Source: Candidatus Woesearchaeota archaeon (GTDB lineage: Archaea; Nanobdellota; Nanobdellia; Woesearchaeales; GCA-2687795). Taken from it: a stretch of DNA of 40,706 nt. The notes beneath the pieces are model-generated. The model ran no database searches. It had not been told where the DNA came from and saw only the letters and a list, made by a program, of their open reading frames with translations. A program made the translations under genes and the position numbers. Shown in pieces: positions 10,517-40,706 of this stretch. The DNA is taken from contig NZBG01000032.1 in the NCBI GenBank assembly GCA_002687795.1, positions 1-40,706 of the forward strand, written 5' to 3'. Position 1 is the first letter of the stretch. The number at the start of each line of letters is the position of its first letter.

Positions 10517-10975
10517 ATGCCATTAATCGGTTCTGATTCCCAATCCCAGCCAAAGCCTGAGCACAAAGGCCTGTTTGGCGGGAAAGAAAAACCTAAGCAA
10601 CTAGATAGCCATAAGGTTGACGAACAGCTAATCAATATGGATAACAGGCTCAGGGTGATAGAAGAAAGGACTTCTAACCTGCAGAGAAGGTATATGGTAA
10701 CTGAGCAGAATATGCTGAGCTCGAATAAGAAATTCAGCTCTGAGTTTAAGACAATCAACCTTGATATAAATGAGATTAAGAAGGAAATAAGCCAGATAAG
10801 GGTAAAGGTACTACAGATAATCGAAGAATTAAAGAAATGCGCAAGAAAAGAAGAAATCACAATGATAAAAAGGTATGTTGATATGTGGGAGCCAATCAAT
10901 TTTGTTACAAGAAAAGAGGTTGAGAAGATAATCGGGGAAATGCTGCAGGAAAAACTCCAGGAGAAGAAGCTATAA
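10517..10975 (+). CDS. Coiled-coil hypothetical protein divergent from the pilus ATPase
   Basis: Heptad-rich sequence, C-terminal 'RYVDMWEPINFVT', ATG start. Confidence 0.75.
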   Translation: MPLIGSDSQSQPKPEHKGLFGGKEKPKQLDSHKVDEQLINMDNRLRVIEERTSNLQRRYMVTEQNMLSSNKKFSSEFKTINLDINEIKKEISQIRVKVLQIIEELKKCARKEEITMIKRYVDMWEPINFVTRKEVEKIIGEMLQEKLQEKKL

Positions 10976-11674
10976 ACTTGCTGTTCTGTTCTTTTTATTA
11001 AGTATAAAGGATTGTGTATCACCGCCGCAATATGTCTTTATTAAAGACTTTAGCTCTTCTAACACTTTTTCCAGCTCAGCCTTCTCCACAGACTGCAGGC
11101 CTTCGACATATATGACAGCGTTTTTTGTATTTTGGGTTACCCTTGTTTTATAGCATTCTTTCCAGTTCCATTTTCTGCATAATACCTCAACATCATCCAT
11201 GTATATTGCCTCGCCTTTATCAGGATTCTGCCTGGTGCTTTCATCAGCAGGGATAAAGTTCTCGCTGCCATCTGCAAAGGCTAGCTTAATATCCCCAATA
11301 ACCTCATCCATGTCATCCCCTCCTGTGGGAATAAGGTATTTTAATGAGAGATAGTTGTAAATGTCAACAAGTTTGCTCTTTCTTGGTATATCTTTTCCAT
11401 CAAGCACTGTTCTCATTAAGGCTTCTACAGAAGAATGATACTTATGCGGCTCTGAGCCAAATGCCAGGAAAGCGCTTCTCCATGGCGAAATCAGCTTATG
11501 TTTAGCTAATTTTTCAGGGATAAAATCAGTCTTAATCAACATCTCTACTTCTTTCAGCAATTTCTGTATATCTTTATTTTCGCCTTTATTATCTATTCCC
11601 CTAGCTATGAGAATTCCTATATTCAGTTTAGGGAATTTCCTGAATATCTCTTCTGTTACCTCAACTTTCTTCAT
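10970..11674 (-). CDS. Stand-alone B3/B4 (PheRS beta editing-like) domain protein
   Basis: 'WR.AF..FG......SSVEAL.R', 'LVDIYN..SL...IP.GG.D.D', 'LCRKWNWK'; start at MKKVEV (11674), because the upstream part of the listed ORF belongs to the acidic gene. Confidence 0.85.
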   Translation of the reverse strand: MKKVEVTEEIFRKFPKLNIGILIARGIDNKGENKDIQKLLKEVEMLIKTDFIPEKLAKHKLISPWRSAFLAFGSEPHKYHSSVEALMRTVLDGKDIPRKSKLVDIYNYLSLKYLIPTGGDDMDEVIGDIKLAFADGSENFIPADESTRQNPDKGEAIYMDDVEVLCRKWNWKECYKTRVTQNTKNAVIYVEGLQSVEKAELEKVLEELKSLIKTYCGGDTQSFILNKKNRTASL

Positions 11675-11816
11675 CTTCCTCTTTTTCTTCCTCAGCGTCT
11701 TCATAGCCTTTCATAAAGGCTTCTTCACGAGGCGACATTTCGTCATCTTCCACTAAATCTTCTCTGGATTCCTCATCATATACTGACTCATCCTCTTCTT
11801 CATCTTCGATTGACAT
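11661..11816 (-). CDS. Small highly acidic protein (51 aa), missed by the ORF track
   Basis: MSIEDEEEDESVYDEESREDLVEDDEMSPREEAFMKGYEDAEEEKEEDEES; TATA-like TTTTAAA upstream; stop overlaps the B3/B4 start. Confidence 0.7.
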   Translation of the reverse strand: MSIEDEEEDESVYDEESREDLVEDDEMSPREEAFMKGYEDAEEEKEEDEES

Positions 11817-30083: not shown

Positions 30084-30908
30084 ATGACAAGATTAAAACA
30101 AGCATTAAAAGGAAAGCTAACAGCAAAGGAATTCTCTTACCTTAGAGCATCCTTTGATGTAATTGGAGATATTGCAATAATCGAAATCCCTGATGAATTA
30201 ATCAAGAAAGAAAAACTCATTGCGGAAACCCTTCTGAATATGTTGAAGAATGTTAAAGTTGTATGTAAGAAAGCTGGCATTCATAAAGGAGTTTTCAGGA
30301 CTCAAAAACTAAAGGTTTTGGCTGGAGAGAAAAGGAAAGAAACCATCCATAAAGAGAATGATACAAGAATAAAAATTAATGTTGAGAAGGTTTATTTCTC
30401 TTCAAGGCTGAGCACTGAAAGGAAAAGAATCTATCAGTTAATAAAACCAGGCGAGTCTGTGCTGGTTATGTTCTCCGGCTGCGCTCCTTACCCTTGCGTT
30501 ATCTCTAAGAATACAAAAGCAAAGGAAATCTATGCTATAGAAATAAATCCTGTTGCCCATAAATATGCTGAAGAGAATGTTAAGCTGAACAAGATTGATA
30601 ATGTTAAACTATTCCTTGGCGATGTAAAGGATATCATCCCCAAACTAAGAAAGAGGTTTGACAGGATCGTGATGCCTTTGCCTAAGTCTGCTGAGAATTT
30701 CCTTGATACTGCGTTGGCTTGCTCTAAGAAGGGGACTGTAGTTCATTTTTATGATTTCTTAAATGAAAAGGAGTTTGAGAAGGCGCATGATAAGATTGAT
30801 AAGGCCTGTAAGAGGAATAAGAGAAAGTATAAGATTCTTAGGACAGTTAAATGCGGCCAGTTTTCTCCGGGAGTGTTTAGGGTTTGCGTTGATTTTAAAG
30901 TAAGTTGA
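30084..30908 (+). CDS. Trm5/Met-10+ family tRNA G37 methyltransferase (short form)
   Basis: SFDVIGDIAI, VYFS.RL.TER, MFSG..PY, EINP.A, DRIVMPLP. Confidence 0.85.
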   Translation: MTRLKQALKGKLTAKEFSYLRASFDVIGDIAIIEIPDELIKKEKLIAETLLNMLKNVKVVCKKAGIHKGVFRTQKLKVLAGEKRKETIHKENDTRIKINVEKVYFSSRLSTERKRIYQLIKPGESVLVMFSGCAPYPCVISKNTKAKEIYAIEINPVAHKYAEENVKLNKIDNVKLFLGDVKDIIPKLRKRFDRIVMPLPKSAENFLDTALACSKKGTVVHFYDFLNEKEFEKAHDKIDKACKRNKRKYKILRTVKCGQFSPGVFRVCVDFKVS

Positions 30909-30914
30909 AAAAAA

Positions 30915-30991
30915 GACATGCGTTCCTAAGTTACTTCCGTTAATCATCGGCTTGCGCCTCATTGGGTGTTCACTAAGTCATCACACATGTC
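30915..30991 (-). ncRNA. Candidate double kink-turn, C/D-box-like small RNA (77 nt)
   Basis: 9-bp terminal stem, two GAU-bulge/tandem G.A motifs, GGC-GCAA-GCC tetraloop, TATA TTTAAAAA about 22 nt upstream, T7 tract downstream. Confidence 0.7.
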
Positions 30992-31028
30992 ATAGTCAGA
31001 AAGTAAGGAGGGTTTTTAAAGGTTTACT

Positions 31029-32684
31029 TTATTTCTTCACAGCTTCAAACAACTCGCTCAGATTAATCTCTAGCCCTACAACAGGCACTTCAATTCCAAA
31101 GTTCTCCAGAACCTTTGGATTTATCTCTCCAATGTATGCAACCTTTTTACCCTTAACAATAACCCTTCCAACCCTGCCATTTATGAAAGAGCTATGCTTT
31201 GTATCCTCAATTGTGTATGTAACCCCAAACGCTCTTGTTAAGCCATCCAACACCTTTTTTATCTCTGTGAAATCCGCCTCTGCATGCGCGCTTATAACAC
31301 CAAGCCTTTCATAATCAGTTACTTTATCCTCTTTTCTTACTGTCACAGTCCCCTGCTCAAAGATTTTCTGAGGGTATTCAACATGCTTATTCTTTGACAG
31401 GAAATCCATAAGAACAGGCAGGAGCCATGTCCTTACCACTGAATATGTCTTGGAAACATACTTGCTTATCTCAACTGTGCCAAAGTCCTCGCAGTTCATC
31501 TTTTTGTATAGAAGCTCCTTGTTGGAGAGCATAGGGCTCATTACCTCCTGACAGCCATAACCAACAATAAGCTCTCTTGCCTTATCAACGAATTCCACCA
31601 TTGGCAATGTTTCACCGATAGTATAGCTTTCCAGGGGAAGCTCTTCAATCTTGTTATAGTCATACATGATTCCTATATCTTCAATAACATCAAACTGGTG
31701 GAGAATATCTTTTCTGTAATGAGGAATCTGCACAACGCCTTTACTATAATCATACCTTGCTCTTTCTATAAGATTCTTTATCTCAGGATCCTTCAGATCA
31801 AGGCCGAGCAGTTCCTTGATTTTATCCTTATTTAGTTTTATTTTATCATTAAACAAGAATGGTGTTACTATTTTTTTGTCTGGGTACTTTATATCAACGC
31901 TGTATATCTTAAAGCTTCTCTCAAGCAATGCCTGGGAAAATATGTTTGTTGCCAGGAGTATTGCATCCTGGTCATCACCGGTTACCTCAAAGAAGAGCTC
32001 TTCATCTCCCACTTCAATTTTTCCTGAAAAGTTAGAGTTAATTATAGGCGGGAAGCTCAGCACCTCATCCTTGTCGTCAACAAGTATAGGATATTTGTCA
32101 AAGCCTTTCAATATCCTGGCATATTCTATGCCTTTAGGATGCTGCTCAAGTATTTGGTTAAGGTCCAGTTCCTTATTAAATTCCAGGGGAACAAACTTGA
32201 TGGATTCAGGGTTGACAGCCTTGTAATGGACAGGGAACTTTATCCTTTTATATGAATAAAGGCCAATTGAAACCTTCTTTCTTTTTCTGCCATAGTTCTC
32301 GCAGAGCTTTTCCTGCAGCTGTATCATCTGCATCAACAGCTTTTCATTAATCATCTGATCCTTTGCAACAAAGGCTGCGATATACGGTCTTATCTTCTTA
32401 ACTGATTTGTCAACGATGACCTTGTAATCTGCCTTGTTTAGCTTTAGGTTAGGTATACCCTTATCCAGATTAAGAACCCCTTTAAGCAACCTTGCAACTC
32501 CCTCAACACTCCAAAGATAAGGAAGGTTAGTGTCGCCAAAATCCGCCTTAACCTCATCAGACTCTTTATCATAACCATCAAACTCTGCCTTGCAATAGAA
32601 TAAAAGCTCTTTCAGCTCATCAATGCTTAATCTTTTTCCAATAAGCTCCTGTAAATCATTTAATGAAAAGGTTATTGTTGGCAT
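31029..32684 (-). CDS. pheT: Phenylalanyl-tRNA synthetase beta subunit (archaeal type)
   Basis: MPTI start, LWSVEG.AR, IRPYI, QEKL...YGRKR, LSFPPIINS, R.DILH..DVIED, GEINP.VL.NF. Confidence 0.95.
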   Translation of the reverse strand: MPTITFSLNDLQELIGKRLSIDELKELLFYCKAEFDGYDKESDEVKADFGDTNLPYLWSVEGVARLLKGVLNLDKGIPNLKLNKADYKVIVDKSVKKIRPYIAAFVAKDQMINEKLLMQMIQLQEKLCENYGRKRKKVSIGLYSYKRIKFPVHYKAVNPESIKFVPLEFNKELDLNQILEQHPKGIEYARILKGFDKYPILVDDKDEVLSFPPIINSNFSGKIEVGDEELFFEVTGDDQDAILLATNIFSQALLERSFKIYSVDIKYPDKKIVTPFLFNDKIKLNKDKIKELLGLDLKDPEIKNLIERARYDYSKGVVQIPHYRKDILHQFDVIEDIGIMYDYNKIEELPLESYTIGETLPMVEFVDKARELIVGYGCQEVMSPMLSNKELLYKKMNCEDFGTVEISKYVSKTYSVVRTWLLPVLMDFLSKNKHVEYPQKIFEQGTVTVRKEDKVTDYERLGVISAHAEADFTEIKKVLDGLTRAFGVTYTIEDTKHSSFINGRVGRVIVKGKKVAYIGEINPKVLENFGIEVPVVGLEINLSELFEAVKK

Positions 32685-32739
32685 TTTGTGATTATCAGCT
32701 ATTTAGAATATAAATTATTTATGTTTATAAAGGTTTAGT

Positions 32740-33837
32740 TTACCCTGTATCATACCTCAATATAGCAGCAACCTTGCCCATGTCCCTTAACTGGGCACCT
32801 TCCCTTGTTTCTGTTGAGATGATCTTGACTTCAGAGCCAACCTGCTTTGCCTCTTCCTCAAGCTTGTCTATCTCTTTATCATCTAAATCTTCTGATAGTA
32901 ACAGGGTTTCAACAGCACCGTTCTTAAGGCTCTTCGCTACCTCTTTCTCCCCGTAAGAGACCATGCCAGGCTTTTTGGATAAAAGTTCAAAGAACTTGGA
33001 CATTATATCCTTTTCAGCCATAACTTCTTCCTTGGCCAGCACATCTTTTGATTTATCTAACAATTCCTGCAATCCAAACTCTCCTGTATAAGATATATCT
33101 TTAATTGCAATAATCTTTTTCTTTAGCTCTGTTGTGATAAAGTCCCCATCAATAAGGTCATGCTTTGAAGGACCGGGACCGCCCATAATAATGCCCTTCA
33201 ACTCCTTTTTGCCAAGGAACTCATTCTTCATATGATCTGCTACTTTTTTGTAATGGTCTTTTATGGCGCCTTCCCTTATTCTTGCATACCTGGCAGCGCT
33301 TTGTCCTCCAGCTTTTATTTTCCCAGGCACCTGGGAATGCGATTTCAGGACAGGCACAATAGTCTTTCCTTTCAGATAAGCAATGTTAGCATCCCTCCTG
33401 TCAACTATAACCAAGGCATAAATCTCTTTAACCTCCATCATATCCCTTAAAAGATCAAGAACGAATTCTTTATCGCACCTGTATATTCTTGTTTTCAATG
33501 GCACTGGAGGCTCAATGCTCCATACCTTCAAGTCCTGCTGCCCTTCCTTTGATGCAATATTACCTGAGAAGGCTGCCAACCCATTCTCTGGTGTTCTCTT
33601 GAACAGCCTTAGATGCTGTATCATCCTCTCAAGGGCATCTACCACATTCTTTCTTGTGGAAGCTGATTTTATGTTTGAAGCTGTGCCCTGCTCCTGGGAA
33701 AGATGGTTGATTACCTTGTTAATATCATAACCTTTGGGGATATAAACACTAACCAGTTCTGTATGGCGGCCCCTATGTAATTCCAGTTCCTTAACGAACT
33801 TCTTCAGTTTATGCTTTTGTACTGTTGTTAGTGTCAT
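32740..33837 (-). CDS. prf1: Peptide chain release factor aRF1
   Basis: GRHTELVSVYIP, TASNIKS, YRCD, GGQS, AAILRY. Confidence 0.97.
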   Translation of the reverse strand: MTLTTVQKHKLKKFVKELELHRGRHTELVSVYIPKGYDINKVINHLSQEQGTASNIKSASTRKNVVDALERMIQHLRLFKRTPENGLAAFSGNIASKEGQQDLKVWSIEPPVPLKTRIYRCDKEFVLDLLRDMMEVKEIYALVIVDRRDANIAYLKGKTIVPVLKSHSQVPGKIKAGGQSAARYARIREGAIKDHYKKVADHMKNEFLGKKELKGIIMGGPGPSKHDLIDGDFITTELKKKIIAIKDISYTGEFGLQELLDKSKDVLAKEEVMAEKDIMSKFFELLSKKPGMVSYGEKEVAKSLKNGAVETLLLSEDLDDKEIDKLEEEAKQVGSEVKIISTETREGAQLRDMGKVAAILRYDTG

Positions 33838-38132: not shown

Positions 38133-39635
38133 TTAAATAACTTTTCCTGGCTTTATATTCTTATTGACAGAGCTTATCAATGATTCCCTGTCCAGAGAAT
38201 AATCGCTGATGATCTTCCCAACAGCATTTATATCTCTTATTTTGTTCTTAACCATATAGTTTAATATATTAGTTTTAGTCTTTAGGTCATTATTAATCTC
38301 TGACTGGCTCATCCCTGTATGCCTGCTCAATTCTTCAAACAGCCTTACTGATTTGCCATGGAAAATTATCTTGTCTGTTGAGGGTTTCCATCTATACAAT
38401 AGGTTTGGCTTAACAGTTGATTTTCCAGATCCCTCTGTTGTGACAAATTCTCCTATTTGATATATCCTTCTGATACTTCTTCTCCTATCCCTGAACATCA
38501 CAACATTGAGGTTCACTGCTTTAAGCAGGTTGGAGGGCACTTCTATTGGCGGATTGACCAGTCTTTGTATTGTCTCATTGATAGAATCTGCATGAACAGT
38601 GGCATACACGCTATGGCCAGTATGCATTGCCTCAAACAAAACTTCTGCCTGCTCCTTTCTTCTCATTTCTCCTAATATTATTCTGTCAGGCCTCATCCTC
38701 AACGAATTAATCAATAAGTCAAGCTCTGTAACAGCTCCCTTGCCTTCATGGTTGGGCTGCCTTGTGACGAGAGGGCACCAATAAAGGAACTTGGGCAGCT
38801 GAAGCTCTCTTGTGTCTTCAATCGAGATTATCCTATGATTAGGGGGGATAAAGGGTATGACAACATTCAAGAAACTGGTTTTTCCGCTGCCTGTGCCCCC
38901 GCTTATTAATATGTTCATTTCATACTGTATCGCAAGCCATACCAAGGCGAATATCTCAGGGTTGGATGTTTTATTTGTTATCAGGTCTGTAACAGTCCAT
39001 GGGTCACGGGCAAATTTTCTTATTGTGATTGTATTTCCCCTATTGGAAATAGGGTAAAGCACAGCATTCGCCCTGTCCCCTGTTACAAGATGGGCATCAA
39101 GCAAAGGGTTCAGGGTTGTTACCTGTTTTCCAACCCTTCTGGCAATCGTGTTGGCATAGTTCTGTATCTGCACTTCGCTGTCAATAGATACATTTGTTTC
39201 AAGCCAGCCATATTTCTTATGGTAAACTCTTATTGGCTCAGATGCTGAGTTAACTATGATTTCTTCCAGAAAGTCATCATTCAGCAGGAACTCTATATTC
39301 CCAAGCCCAACCATCTCATGCAATAGCAATCCAACCAAGAGATTTTTTGTTTTGTCATCTATTTTAGGCAGTTTTTCTTTTAGGAATTGTTCTGCCTTGA
39401 CTCTAAATTTTTCTTTTAAGGAGGCGATTACTTTTGGATCCAGGATCTCTGCTGTGCTTACAGTAACCTCTGTAACAAGCTTATGCCTGATATCATCCAA
39501 TAACGAAACAGTGGGTTTAGATAGTTTAGGAATAACTATATTATATTGCAGAGGTTTCCCTTCTTCTTTTACTATCTCAACATCAATCTATATCTCGTCT
39601 ACCTTGATCCTATACTTTTCTTTTATTTCTTTCAT
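38133..39635 (-). pseudogene. CpaF/TadA-family pilus ATPase with in-frame TAG at codon 16 (39588-39590)
   Basis: GGTGSGKTS, SIEDTREL, LRMRPDRIILGE, TGH...TVHA; ATG 39635 with SD GAGG, in frame with TTG 39500. Confidence 0.8.
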
Positions 39636-40706
39636 TTGCCTCTTTTTCCACTTTTAACTCTGGCTCTCCAAAGGGTGGGTAATGTAGCTTTAACATGCTA
39701 TGACCCTCTAAGATCATACACCATTCCTCAGCCAGCTTTTTATCAATCCCAAAATACTTTTCTATTTCTGACAGCTTAATACTTCCCCTTCTTTTAACTA
39801 ACTTGTACAATACATCAAAGTCTGTTTCATATTTCTCCCTTTTAATTTCCATTCCCTTGATTTCTATTAATCTTTCCTTTTTTGTTTCTTCTTTTTTGGG
39901 CATTTTCCTTTTATTTAACCTATATCCCAACAAAGACAATAACATCAGAGAAATCCCCAGGATAAAGGTAATCAAATGGCGGTAAACAAATGTAAAAACA
40001 ACAATGAGCATGGAAATAAAAAACATGGTATAGTATACTTCCGGCTTGTTTATCTTTTTTGGCTTTGCAGCCTTTTCCTGTTTCTCCTTATGCAGCTTTG
40101 CTGCTTTTTCCTGTTTCTCACTGCGTATCCATAAACAAATCTCCTTCAGCTTAGAATACAGATTTCTTTTCTCTTTAAACTCAAGGGGCTTGCTGATTAA
40201 TTTGCCATAAAGCCACCTTAGCTTAAGATAGGAATCTGTAACCTTACTAATGTTCTTTTCTGCTATAAATTTATTGGCTTTATTTATCAATGTCCTGAGC
40301 TCTGATACATCCTTTTCTAATCTCTTTTTTAGCTTAAGCTCTCTCCTTTTCTCTCTTTCTCCCTCCTTTTTCCTTGCCAGAATCAAGACAGTCGATATTG
40401 ATATCAAAACCGCGCCTATGATAGAATAAACCAATTTATGATAAACTAATGCAACACAAAAAACAACTAAAGAGATAAAAAATGCAATAATGTATACAAT
40501 TAATCCGTCTTTCCTTTTGGGTTTCTCGAGCTTCTCTTGTTTTTCCGGAGCCTTTACAAGCTTTTTATTCTTTATTGTCTTCTTATTATATAACGAAGCA
40601 CGATAAAAAAATGAACCTCCCCGCACTAAAGTGCGGGGTATCATATTAAGCAAAGGAAGTAACTTTCCTTTGTTGTCCGCCAAAATTCCAATATCCCTGG
40701 GATTCA
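39610..40706 (-). CDS. Membrane protein with two repeated TM-hairpin modules and C-terminal winged-helix-like domain; start uncertain
   Basis: Frame open to window end; 'ETDFD.LY.LV...G.IKLSEI...F......EEW..IL......L.YP' C-terminus; overlaps the ATPase start. Confidence 0.65.
   Translation of the reverse strand, partial: NPRDIGILADNKGKLLPLLNMIPRTLVRGGSFFYRASLYNKKTIKNKKLVKAPEKQEKLEKPKRKDGLIVYIIAFFISLVVFCVALVYHKLVYSIIGAVLISISTVLILARKKEGEREKRRELKLKKRLEKDVSELRTLINKANKFIAEKNISKVTDSYLKLRWLYGKLISKPLEFKEKRNLYSKLKEICLWIRSEKQEKAAKLHKEKQEKAAKPKKINKPEVYYTMFFISMLIVVFTFVYRHLITFILGISLMLLSLLGYRLNKRKMPKKEETKKERLIEIKGMEIKREKYETDFDVLYKLVKRRGSIKLSEIEKYFGIDKKLAEEWCMILEGHSMLKLHYPPFGEPELKVEKEANERNKRKV
40611..40644. 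repeat. IS200/IS605-end-like hairpin
   Basis: CCCCGCAC-TAAA-GTGCGGGG (40619-40638) flanked by ATGA/TCAT. Confidence 0.75.

Follow-up and report, generated by a model that had tools for sequence, protein, structure and literature searches.

A small RNA between trm5 and pheT of a Woesearchaeota archaeon, a probable C/D-type methylation guide with non-consensus boxes and a predicted A-loop target

What kind of RNA, if any, occupies the 120-nt gap between the convergent genes trm5 and pheT in a 40,706-nt contig of a Candidatus Woesearchaeota archaeon, here called the window? An original prediction made from the letters alone had placed a small RNA with two kink-turns (K-turns) at this site, and Pfam domains agree with the location, assigning Trm5 to 30084-30908 on the plus strand and PheT to 32684-31029 on the minus strand. 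We compared the window with six further PheT loci (L001-L006), together 126,300 bases from up to seven genomes. Sequence, fold and a conserved copy support a 77-nt RNA on the minus strand (30991-30915, with its 5' G at 30991), built from two K-turn motifs, a terminal stem of 9 bp and a hairpin with a GCAA loop. With good confidence, we regard it as a C/D-type 2'-O-methylation guide with non-consensus C (AUGACUU) and D (AGGA) boxes and a target in the A-loop of 23S rRNA. On this reading it is a known kind of RNA with unusual boxes.

The 5' strand of the terminal stem (GACAUGUGU, 30983..30991) pairs with the 3' strand (ACGCAUGUC, 30915..30923), and all nine pairs are standard or G.U, one of them being a U.G. 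K-turn 1 follows, with the bulge G-A-U at 30982-30980, the C-like box AUGACUU at 30975..30981 and a sheared GA at 30979-30978 opposite the GA of the D-like box AGGA (30924..30927). The tandem G.A pairs are succeeded by C-G, U-A, U.U, A-U and G-C. An internal loop with strands of 10 and 11 nt separates K-turn 1 from K-turn 2, in which the GA of the D' box AUGA (30959..30962) pairs with the GA of the C' box AUGAUUA (30941..30947), with U.U and A-U next. Its bulge G-A-U is at 30948-30946, and the apical hairpin GGC-GCAA-GCC (30949..30958), unchanged in L001, provides its canonical stem. The two spacers are a 12-nt D' guide (AGUGAACACCCA, 30963..30974), in which A30967 is the fifth nucleotide upstream of D', and a 13-nt D guide (ACGGAAGUAACUU, 30928..30940), whose last three nucleotides pair with the C-side strand in an extended inner stem. 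The RNA is followed by a U7 tract (30908..30914), a likely archaeal terminator that overlaps the stop codon of trm5. The thermodynamic fold returns the terminal stem, the extended inner stem and the hairpin, with an energy of -19.8 kcal/mol (z = -2.30) on the minus strand and -14.5 (z = -0.69) on the plus strand; z-scores across folds were modest (-1.7 to -2.3). Both the U.G pair and the difference in fold energy point to the minus strand. The features listed in the original prediction, namely TATA box, stem, K-turns, loop, boxes, hairpin and U7, were all recovered on this strand at the coordinates given here.

The order of C-like box, 12 nt, D', hairpin, C', 13 nt and D-like box corresponds to the spacing of an archaeal C/D sRNA. 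Compared with the usual range of 10-12 nt for guide spacers, the C-D' spacer measures 12 nt and the C'-D spacer 13 nt, one above the range, which we counted as fitting. The RNA without its U tail (77 nt) is longer than the roughly 50-70 nt usual for archaeal C/D sRNAs because of the 9-bp terminal stem and the 10-nt apical hairpin. The predicted layout of a C/D guide whose D boxes are not CUGA is therefore borne out: the non-canonical stems of the K-turns face the internal loop, spacers of 12 and 13 nt lie between the boxes, and a terminal stem closes the molecule.

The letters of the terminal boxes depart from the consensus, which speaks against the guide reading. In eukaryotes, positions 5-7 of box C and positions 1-2 of box D matter for the assembly of Nop5 and fibrillarin. 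The box C consensus is RUGAUGA according to PMC7994747, and near the 5' end AUGACUU fits it at positions 1-4 and departs from it at positions 5-7. An overlapping GUGAUGA was considered as box C and ruled out, as L001 reads AAUGACUU there. Near the 3' end, AGGA keeps the GA of the CUGA consensus and replaces CU by AG, and this AG forms C-G and U-A pairs with the altered letters of the C-like box; at the sequence level, the K-turn geometry appears to be kept despite the changes in the terminal boxes. The internal boxes are closer to consensus, with C' matching RUGAUGA at six of seven positions and D' matching CUGA at three of four. Here too the two changes offset each other, G-to-U in C' and C-to-A in D', so that the compensatory U-A for the consensus G-C, which had been proposed for AUGAUUA and AUGA, is indeed present. 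Degenerate internal boxes are frequent in published archaeal sRNA lists. According to PMC7994747, L7Ae binding requires tandem GA pairs, a 3-nt bulge with a uridine preceding the GA, and a terminal stem, all three of them present in K-turn 1. By sequence, both K-turns contain features of this type (stem, two sheared G.A pairs and the bulge uridine), with the hairpin stem standing in for the terminal stem in K-turn 2.

It had also been anticipated that standard scanners would probably miss this RNA, and our searches agree. A regular expression for consensus C/D boxes gave no match in the window and L001-L006 (126 kb), and a relaxed version matched only the element and its copy in L001. The lack of any canonical C/D sRNA in these 126 kb also counts against the guide reading. 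At gathering scores, Rfam returned only tRNA-Cys for the whole window and a single tRNA for the fetched loci, and a search of the element region with E-values up to 10 gave a single noise match only.

The original prediction further gave the RNA its own promoter. A TATA-like octamer on the minus strand (TTTAAAAA, 31020-31013) has its first T 29 nt upstream of the 5' G of the RNA. It is the centre of a promoter-like block, TAAACC-TTTAAAAA-CCC (31010..31026), of which all 17 nt are identical in L001, unlike the 8-10 nt directly upstream of the RNA, which differ. The signals resemble those of tRNA-Cys in the same window, where TTTATTAA lies 34 nt upstream of the mature 5' end and a T8 stands at the end of the gene. 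Box A of Nanoarchaeum equitans is TTTAAA and is located 26 nt upstream of the transcription start (PMC3491384). It is plausible from these sequence features that the TTTAAAAA block serves as a separate promoter of the RNA. A scan for bacterial-type signals, with archaeal promoters outside its model, detected neither a promoter nor an intrinsic-terminator-like site; archaeal termination needs a T-run only. Because no T-run terminator of pheT precedes the RNA, the two could equally well be transcribed together. Thus, the part of the proposal that stands is a conserved box at the right distance with signals similar to those of tRNA-Cys, while a strictly separate transcript is not supported over co-transcription.

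The strongest indication that the element exceeds chance comes from sequence conservation in L001, a Woesearchaeota contig with a PheT 79% identical to that of the window. The same element lies between pheT and trm5 there, identical at 72 of 75 positions of the RNA and at 7/7 of the U7 tract, compared with 117/169 (69%) in the 3' coding DNA of pheT and 168/209 (80%) in the coding DNA of trm5. Unpaired loops, bulges and both spacers are invariant. Loops and guides are hence conserved as strictly as the stems in this comparison, which points to a sequence-specific function rather than a mere hairpin. The terminal stem of L001 has 8 bp, and its only stem difference, at the second pair, is compensated (A-U to G-C); standard pairs occupy 33 of 33 pair cells in the two copies. 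The original prediction had named missing conservation or covariation in relatives among the findings that would speak against it, and what we observe is a nearly unchanged copy with one compensated stem change. This covariation is one pair from two near-identical copies, and with n = 2 its shuffle control (238/500) carries no information. Matches to a loose double-K-turn descriptor are not unusual: there were two in the real 126,300 bases, and 40 shuffle sets averaged 1.6 each. A stricter descriptor, devised after seeing the element (8 bp or more in the outer stem, UGA in each turn, positions 3 and 4 paired, spacing of 15-19 nt), gave the same two real matches and none in 200 shuffles. The covariance model (R1), built from the two copies, matched only these in the 126,300 bases and revealed no paralogue. 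Downstream of pheT the element is missing in five of the six PheT loci (L002-L006), where the gene order is pheS-pheT in L002 and L004-L006 and pheS-HIT-pheT in L003; the 10-nt guide core was not found in these five loci. Regarding a mobile origin, we detected no similarity to phage or plasmid records.

The reading as a divergent methylation guide, already put forward in the original prediction, gains a candidate target from the D' guide. This guide shares 11 of its 12 nt with the D' guide of N. equitans sRNA10 (NeqsR10), aligned in the same register, and the sole difference is the nucleotide adjoining D'. In the supplement of PMC4644070, sRNA10 reads C box, AGTGAACACCCT, CTGA. It is a published C/D sRNA detected by RNA-seq, and its predicted methylation site is the A-loop uridine equivalent to E. 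coli U2552, the first of that loop in 23S rRNA (Randau 2012, PMC3491384; Dennis et al. 2015, PMC4644070); Additional file 2 of PMC3491384 lists 3200 reads and the PLEXY target of D' as Neq 23S-2630 within GGGGUmGUUCACC. The stretch GGGUGUUCAC in the N. equitans 23S A-loop is the exact complement of guide nucleotides 2-11 (10 contiguous nt) and covers the unusual G...A closing positions implied by C4 and U10 of the guide. By eye, A-loop guides in the same register also occur in M. kandleri sR17, I. hospitalis sR33 and S. acidocaldarius sR7, and U2552 is a predicted guide target in five of seven species (PMC4644070). In E. coli 23S rRNA, the best site of the D' guide is 2548-2559, with nine Watson-Crick pairs and one G.U among 12 positions, and the fifth nucleotide of the guide lies opposite U2552, as the fifth-nucleotide rule expects. 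Shuffled guides reached the score of the D' guide in 103 of 300 cases for E. coli rRNA and in 294 of 300 for Haladaptatus, so these scores are not significant alone. The archaeal LSU consensus at helix 92 (cgGGcUGUUCgCCcg) would give a C.C mismatch adjoining the target nucleotide. Judged on E. coli and N. equitans rRNA, the D' guide is complementary to rRNA at a plausible 2'-O-methyl site.

No such partner emerged for the D guide, for which E. coli and Haladaptatus rRNA contain no convincing site. Among the Haladaptatus sites, the best one (10 of 13 pairs at 23S 1745-1757) adjoins a cluster of published guide sites, though N. equitans sR21 targets another nucleotide in this region. The complement of the D guide was not found in published alignments of seven archaeal rRNAs, and a suspected helix 93 target near E. 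coli 2605 was dropped because it shares only four letters. Apart from the guide's own locus, the window has a single complement with 11 contiguous nt (40665-40655, minus strand), and a hairpin loop in the HgcC-like element at the window end is perfectly complementary to the D guide over 11 nt. Nothing relevant came from a literature search on HgcC.

Other functions have to be weighed against that of a methylation guide. The RNA could be a structured L7Ae binder, either a decoy or regulator of L7Ae or a chaperone of rRNA folding that pairs with the A-loop without catalysis. Both K-turns carry the features that L7Ae needs, the terminal boxes are off consensus outside the GA pairs, and the D guide is partly tied up in a stem and has no rRNA target found. 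Moreover, Pfam searches for L7Ae, Nop5 (Nop) and fibrillarin domains found none in the 39 ORFs of the window and the 93 ORFs of L001-L006, although this absence is weak evidence against a guide, as it covers only about 126 kb over up to seven genomes. Fibrillarin was found in more than 90% of the archaeal taxa surveyed in PMC8481954 and in 140 of 148 genomes in PMC7608942, and COG1889 (fibrillarin) and COG1498 (Nop5) both belong to a set of 38 archaeal single-copy completeness genes (PMC9258230); these reports speak against a mere L7Ae binder. Published methylation guides show the same 12-nt spacing, and their A-loop guides stand in exactly this register to D'; the shared register suggests a methyltransferase positioned by the box, since only then would the register matter. 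We therefore consider a function restricted to L7Ae binding or rRNA folding to be unlikely.

The position of the element in the gap between two convergent genes could also reflect a shared terminator or 3'-UTR hairpin of pheT and trm5 with no function in trans. The element ends in U7 across the stop codon of trm5, its TATA-like box, which on the plus strand reads TTTTTAAA, could terminate trm5, and pheT has no other T-run before the element. Nevertheless, the negative result of the terminator scan and the invariance of loops, bulges and both spacers, as opposed to 69-80% identity in the coding flanks, argue against it. A terminator would also account neither for the K-turns and the 12-nt spacing nor for the guide shared with N. 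equitans, and we regard this explanation as very improbable. An H/ACA-like pseudouridylation guide, a single hairpin that has an internal pocket and carries a K-turn in its upper stem, would accommodate the 10/11-nt internal loop between the lower stem and the upper K-turn hairpin, and the sole Rfam match was to an H/ACA family, albeit at noise level and on the opposite strand (11 bits, E = 7.9). Such a guide is hardly credible here: U7 directly follows the lower stem where ACA would be expected, the upper stem between pocket and GA pairs comprises two pairs only (U.U and U-A), and the guide register fits the C/D rule instead. Nor is the H/ACA family known to have another K-turn in its lower stem.

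As a C/D-type methylation guide, the RNA would be transcribed on the minus strand, either from a TATA-like box of its own, as the 3' end of the pheT transcript, or in both ways, and would end at U7. It is predicted to fold into the 9-bp terminal stem, K-turn 1 (AUGACUU with AGGA) and the GCAA-closed K-turn 2 (AUGAUUA with AUGA). By analogy with the C/D family, L7Ae would bind each K-turn, followed by a Nop5 dimer with two fibrillarins. The D' guide would then pair with helix 92 (A-loop) of 23S rRNA. Its fifth nucleotide upstream of D' would face the first uridine of the loop (E. coli U2552), and this uridine would receive the 2'-O-methyl group. Methylation of the U2552 equivalent is proposed because of the guide homology and the fifth-nucleotide rule as applied to the rRNAs of other organisms. 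Hence, the RNA most likely directs methylation of one universally modified A-loop uridine, a position among the most widely conserved ribosomal ribose methylations, and would be a pointer to RNA-guided modification of this nucleotide in a mesophilic, small-genome DPANN lineage. In the literature outside subscription journals, we found no C/D sRNA described for this lineage.

The boxes suggest that C/D letters beyond the GA dinucleotides may be replaceable by compensating Watson-Crick pairs, and with such swapped letters consensus-based scanners and Rfam would miss the genes. Both K-turns have U-A in place of the near-invariant G-C, and the terminal one also has C-G in place of U.U. It may be speculated that Nop5 and L7Ae of the lineage could have co-evolved to read the altered box, that the RNA may be one of very few guides retained in a small mesophilic genome, and that its D guide may act on a non-ribosomal structured RNA, the HgcC-like element. 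The combination of recoded K-turn boxes in the C/D RNPs of the lineage, very few remaining guides and a non-ribosomal D target is tentative, and we rather doubt that it holds. If the boxes are recoded, standard scanners would miss the whole guide set of the lineage, and the structure and guide described here offer a concrete seed for finding the remaining guides in these genomes.

Among known RNAs, NeqsR10 shares with the window RNA the 12-nt guide between box C and D' (11/12, same register), the first 23S A-loop uridine as predicted target, a DPANN host and a T-run after the gene. It differs in its consensus-like boxes (GUGAUGA, CUGA, AUGAAGA and CUGA), a D'-C' linker of 3 nt (K-loop) instead of 11 nt (GGC-GCAA-GCC hairpin plus G), unpaired ends (PMC3491384) instead of a 9-bp stem, and a D spacer of 12 instead of 13 nt with an unrelated D guide. 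Judged from their sequences, the two may be either orthologues or the result of convergence on the same target. By eye, M. kandleri sR17, I. hospitalis sR33 and S. acidocaldarius sR7 are likewise complementary to helix 92 with the first loop uridine at the fifth position from D'/D, and in each species the guide follows the rRNA in the letters that face the helix-92 stem. In contrast to the window RNA, they stem from hyperthermophiles and carry CUGA beside the A-loop guide. D boxes of the CCGA type exist in other sRNAs of the PMC4644070 lists and, by eye, in sR17 and sR33 only at the other box. The 3b-3n replacements in PMC4644070 sRNAs, where present, are of the G-C type, and none of the rows compared has U-A at the fourth position of both K-turns. 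The bacterial Um2552 methyltransferase RrmJ/FtsJ modifies the same nucleotide, and its loss slows the growth of E. coli (PMC7994747). It is, however, a stand-alone enzyme that uses no guide RNA. Two other Woesearchaeota loci contain FtsJ-like ORFs (L003 16648-17001, L006 2061-2762), and the window contains none. In yeast, snR52 guides methylation of the equivalent A-loop uridine with Spb1 as back-up, and the eukaryotic A-loop guides differ in that they act as snoRNPs with Nop56/Nop58.

The small RNA occupies 77 nt on the minus strand (30991-30915), between the genes for PheT (32684-31029), upstream on the same strand, and Trm5 (30084-30908), which is convergent on the opposite strand. Both neighbours were named by Pfam, in agreement with the location originally predicted, and all letters and coordinates that the original prediction gave for this region proved correct against the window sequence. 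Reading downward from 31026, a promoter-like block (TAAACC-TTTAAAAA-CCC) is followed by a spacer of about 20 nt, the RNA and, directly 3' of it, a run of seven T that is overlapped by the stop codon of trm5. ORF annotation confirms the archaeal character of the window, which encodes EF-2, aEF-1 beta, a tRNA-intron endonuclease, FEN1 and aRF1.

From 5' to 3', the RNA consists of the first strand of a 9-bp terminal stem, a C-like box (AUGACUU), a 12-nt D' spacer, a D' box (AUGA), an 11-nt linker holding the hairpin, a C' box (AUGAUUA), a 13-nt D spacer, a D-like box (AGGA) and the second 9-nt strand of the terminal stem. According to PMC7994747, the boxes of C/D RNAs follow the consensus RUGAUGA and CUGA, their guides span 10-12 nt and the methylated nucleotide faces the fifth one upstream of D or D'; L7Ae needs a stem that brings the boxes together, a bulge uridine and two sheared GA pairs. 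The spacing of the family and all three L7Ae sequence features are found here, which bears out the proposed C/D layout with D boxes (AUGA and AGGA) other than CUGA. Beyond AUGA...GA, the box letters miss the consensus; the off-consensus letters change on both strands so that they pair, as C-G and U-A in the terminal K-turn and as U-A in the internal one, the latter being the compensatory pair that had been anticipated.

Thermodynamic folding of the minus strand recovered the 9-bp terminal stem, the inner stem (C-G, U-A, U.U, A-U, G-C) and the GGC-GCAA-GCC hairpin, with an energy of -19.8 kcal/mol (z = -2.30) compared to -14.5 kcal/mol (z = -0.69) for the plus strand, on which the U.G pair of the stem would become a C.A mismatch. 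The letters that define the K-turns (a 3-nt bulge with U as its last base, then GA facing GA) are likewise present only on the minus strand. At the level of sequence, the claimed architecture of two K-turns, terminal stem and GNRA hairpin stands. The non-canonical stems of both K-turns face the internal loop, which is the topology of box C/D RNAs. A loose double-K-turn descriptor gave two real matches in 126,300 bases, where 40 shuffle sets averaged 1.6; a strict descriptor, composed only after the element had been seen, gave the same two matches and none in 200 shuffles. The loose pattern is thus not rare, and the comparative evidence argues better for more than chance.

A PheT query of genome contigs returned six contigs, of which L005 has Methanosarcinales in its title and the other five Woesearchaeota. 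Only the closest, the Woesearchaeota contig L001, contains the element; its PheT is 79% identical and its gene order (aRF1-pheT-trm5-EamA-FEN1) is that of the window. In the other five, nothing resembling the RNA was found downstream of pheT, and the gene order around pheT differs. Between the window and L001, the RNA is identical at 72/75 positions, the T-run at 7/7 and the 17-nt promoter-like block at all positions, compared to 117/169 for the 3' coding DNA of pheT and 168/209 for trm5 coding DNA. The expected conservation in a related genome was therefore observed, above the level of the flanking coding DNA. All unpaired letters of both spacers, the hairpin loop and the second bulge are unchanged. 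The first bulge letter is G in the window and A in L001, the outer end of the stem shows an A-U to G-C change plus the loss of one terminal pair, and a few bases immediately 5' of the first G of the RNA differ. Standard pairs are kept in all 33 scored pair cells, an observation without a statistic since these two sequences are the only copies found.

The compared loci showed several further features. In the window (31029-33837) and L001, pheT comes after aRF1 and has no pheS next to it; in L002, L004, L005 and L006 pheS immediately precedes pheT, and in L003 a small HIT-domain ORF separates the two. The window also encodes a separate B3/4-domain protein of 244 aa (10970-11704). The aRF1 of L001 (728-3652; 975 aa) carries an intein with LAGLIDADG endonuclease and HTH domains (Pfam), and that of the window (32740-33837; 365 aa) is without insert. 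The Trm5/TYW2 ORF of L001 (5733-7289) has 519 aa compared to 274 aa in the window and probably carries an insertion, possibly another intein, since its methyltransferase domain was matched in two stretches. An ORF of L003 (4410-5630), a contig titled Woesearchaeota, has sigma-70 region 2 and region 4 domains, unexpected in an archaeon, which could reflect horizontal transfer or a problem of binning or assembly. L005, titled 'uncultured Methanosarcinales archaeon', has the gene order of L004 and a PheT 58% identical to that of the window, which falls among the values (49-62%) for the four Woesearchaeota loci more distant than L001; its label may be due to mis-binning.

Transcription would start from the conserved TATA-like box, which begins 29 nt upstream of the first G, a distance comparable to that of tRNA-Cys in the window and of the N. 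equitans box A (PMC3491384). As pheT is without its own T-run ahead of the RNA, a transcript that reads through from pheT and is then trimmed is just as possible. From either origin, the transcript would end at U7; tRNA-Cys in the window also has a U-run signal 3'. Signals are packed tightly on both strands at 30908-31020: the plus-strand version of the TATA-like box is TTTTTAAA, the first T-run past trm5, and judged from its letters may terminate trm5. Since U7 overlaps the trm5 stop, trm5 transcription would cross the small RNA gene antisense. With both K-turns formed, as their letters predict, L7Ae, Nop5 and fibrillarin would assemble on the RNA as in the rest of the family. No genes for these RNP proteins were seen among the ORFs of the window and L001-L006. 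Fibrillarin is reported from >90% of archaeal taxa surveyed (PMC8481954) and in 140/148 genomes (PMC7608942), archaeal single-copy markers include fibrillarin and Nop5 (PMC9258230), and N. equitans has both (PMC3491384).

For the D' guide (30974-30963), the 23S rRNA of the E. coli K-12 rrnH operon served as reference. The best site was 2548-2559 (9 Watson-Crick pairs and 1 G.U over 12), so that the fifth guide nucleotide faces U2552, where the loop of helix 92 begins. The score itself is unremarkable, as 103/300 shuffled guides equal it. The archaeal rRNA proxy was a complete operon (16S, 23S, 5S) of Haladaptatus salinisoli (NZ_CP085330.1, 402265-412450), located on a sequence submitted as a 540-kb plasmid; in its 23S the A-loop only ties for best site, with a score reached by 294/300 shuffled guides. 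The Rfam archaeal helix-92 consensus would mismatch the guide at position 4. Guides for E. coli U2552 are predicted in five of seven archaea (Dennis et al. 2015, PMC4644070), and the DPANN archaeon N. equitans has a helix-92 variant (23S alignment, supplement file 2) that contains a stretch exactly complementary to guide nucleotides 2-11, with both positions unlike other archaea included. Going by the fifth-nucleotide rule and by the identity of the guide with published ones, pairing of the D' guide with helix 92 would direct methylation of the U2552 equivalent.

Neither E. coli nor Haladaptatus rRNA offered a convincing site for the D guide, and its complement is absent from the published alignments of seven archaeal rRNAs. 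Three nucleotides of this guide pair with the strand on the C side as part of the extended inner stem. Apart from itself, the window holds a single perfect 11-nt complement to it, 40665-40655 on the minus strand; 10/300 shuffled windows give an 11-nt match to either guide. This candidate pairing, regarded as a lead only, would involve the loop and 3' arm of the first hairpin of a structured element (40598-40706, minus strand, cut by the window end) with hairpins CAAAGGAA-AGUUAC-UUCCUUUG and CCCCGCAC-UUUA-GUGCGGGG, then U7. The element folds at -32.7 kcal/mol (z = -2.4) and has a weak, sub-threshold Rfam match to HgcC (14.3 bits vs gathering score 50, E = 0.32). A long ORF called at 39610-40704 overlaps it, the start of which probably lies downstream of the element.

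We found no literature on C/D sRNAs in Woesearchaeota or in DPANN archaea other than N. equitans, subscription journals being outside the scope. Compared to archaeal C/D sRNAs, the RNA does not match boxes C and D letter by letter, lies somewhat above the length range and has a complete K-turn with a GNRA hairpin in the position that a K-loop occupies in most archaeal guides. A Watson-Crick pair in place of U.U is already known from the M. kandleri and I. hospitalis lists (e.g. AUGAGGA with CCGA, read by eye), and a U-A at the fourth position of both K-turns was not seen in the published sRNA rows examined. The D' guide is identical at 11/12 positions, in the same RNA half and in the same register to D', to that of N. 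equitans sR10 (box C, AGTGAACACCCT, CTGA; PMC4644070, supplement file 1), a match that fulfils a prediction rather than resulting from a trawl, because the E. coli result had predicted the supplement entry. sR10 is represented by 3200 reads, and PLEXY assigns its D' guide to the uridine within GGGGUmGUUCACC at 23S 2630 (Randau 2012, PMC3491384, Additional file 2). M. kandleri sR17, I. hospitalis sR33 and S. acidocaldarius sR7 are helix-92 guides with, by eye, the same register. On its sequence, we file the RNA as one that would work like an archaeal C/D sRNA, specifically like the published A-loop guides, with a new box variant.
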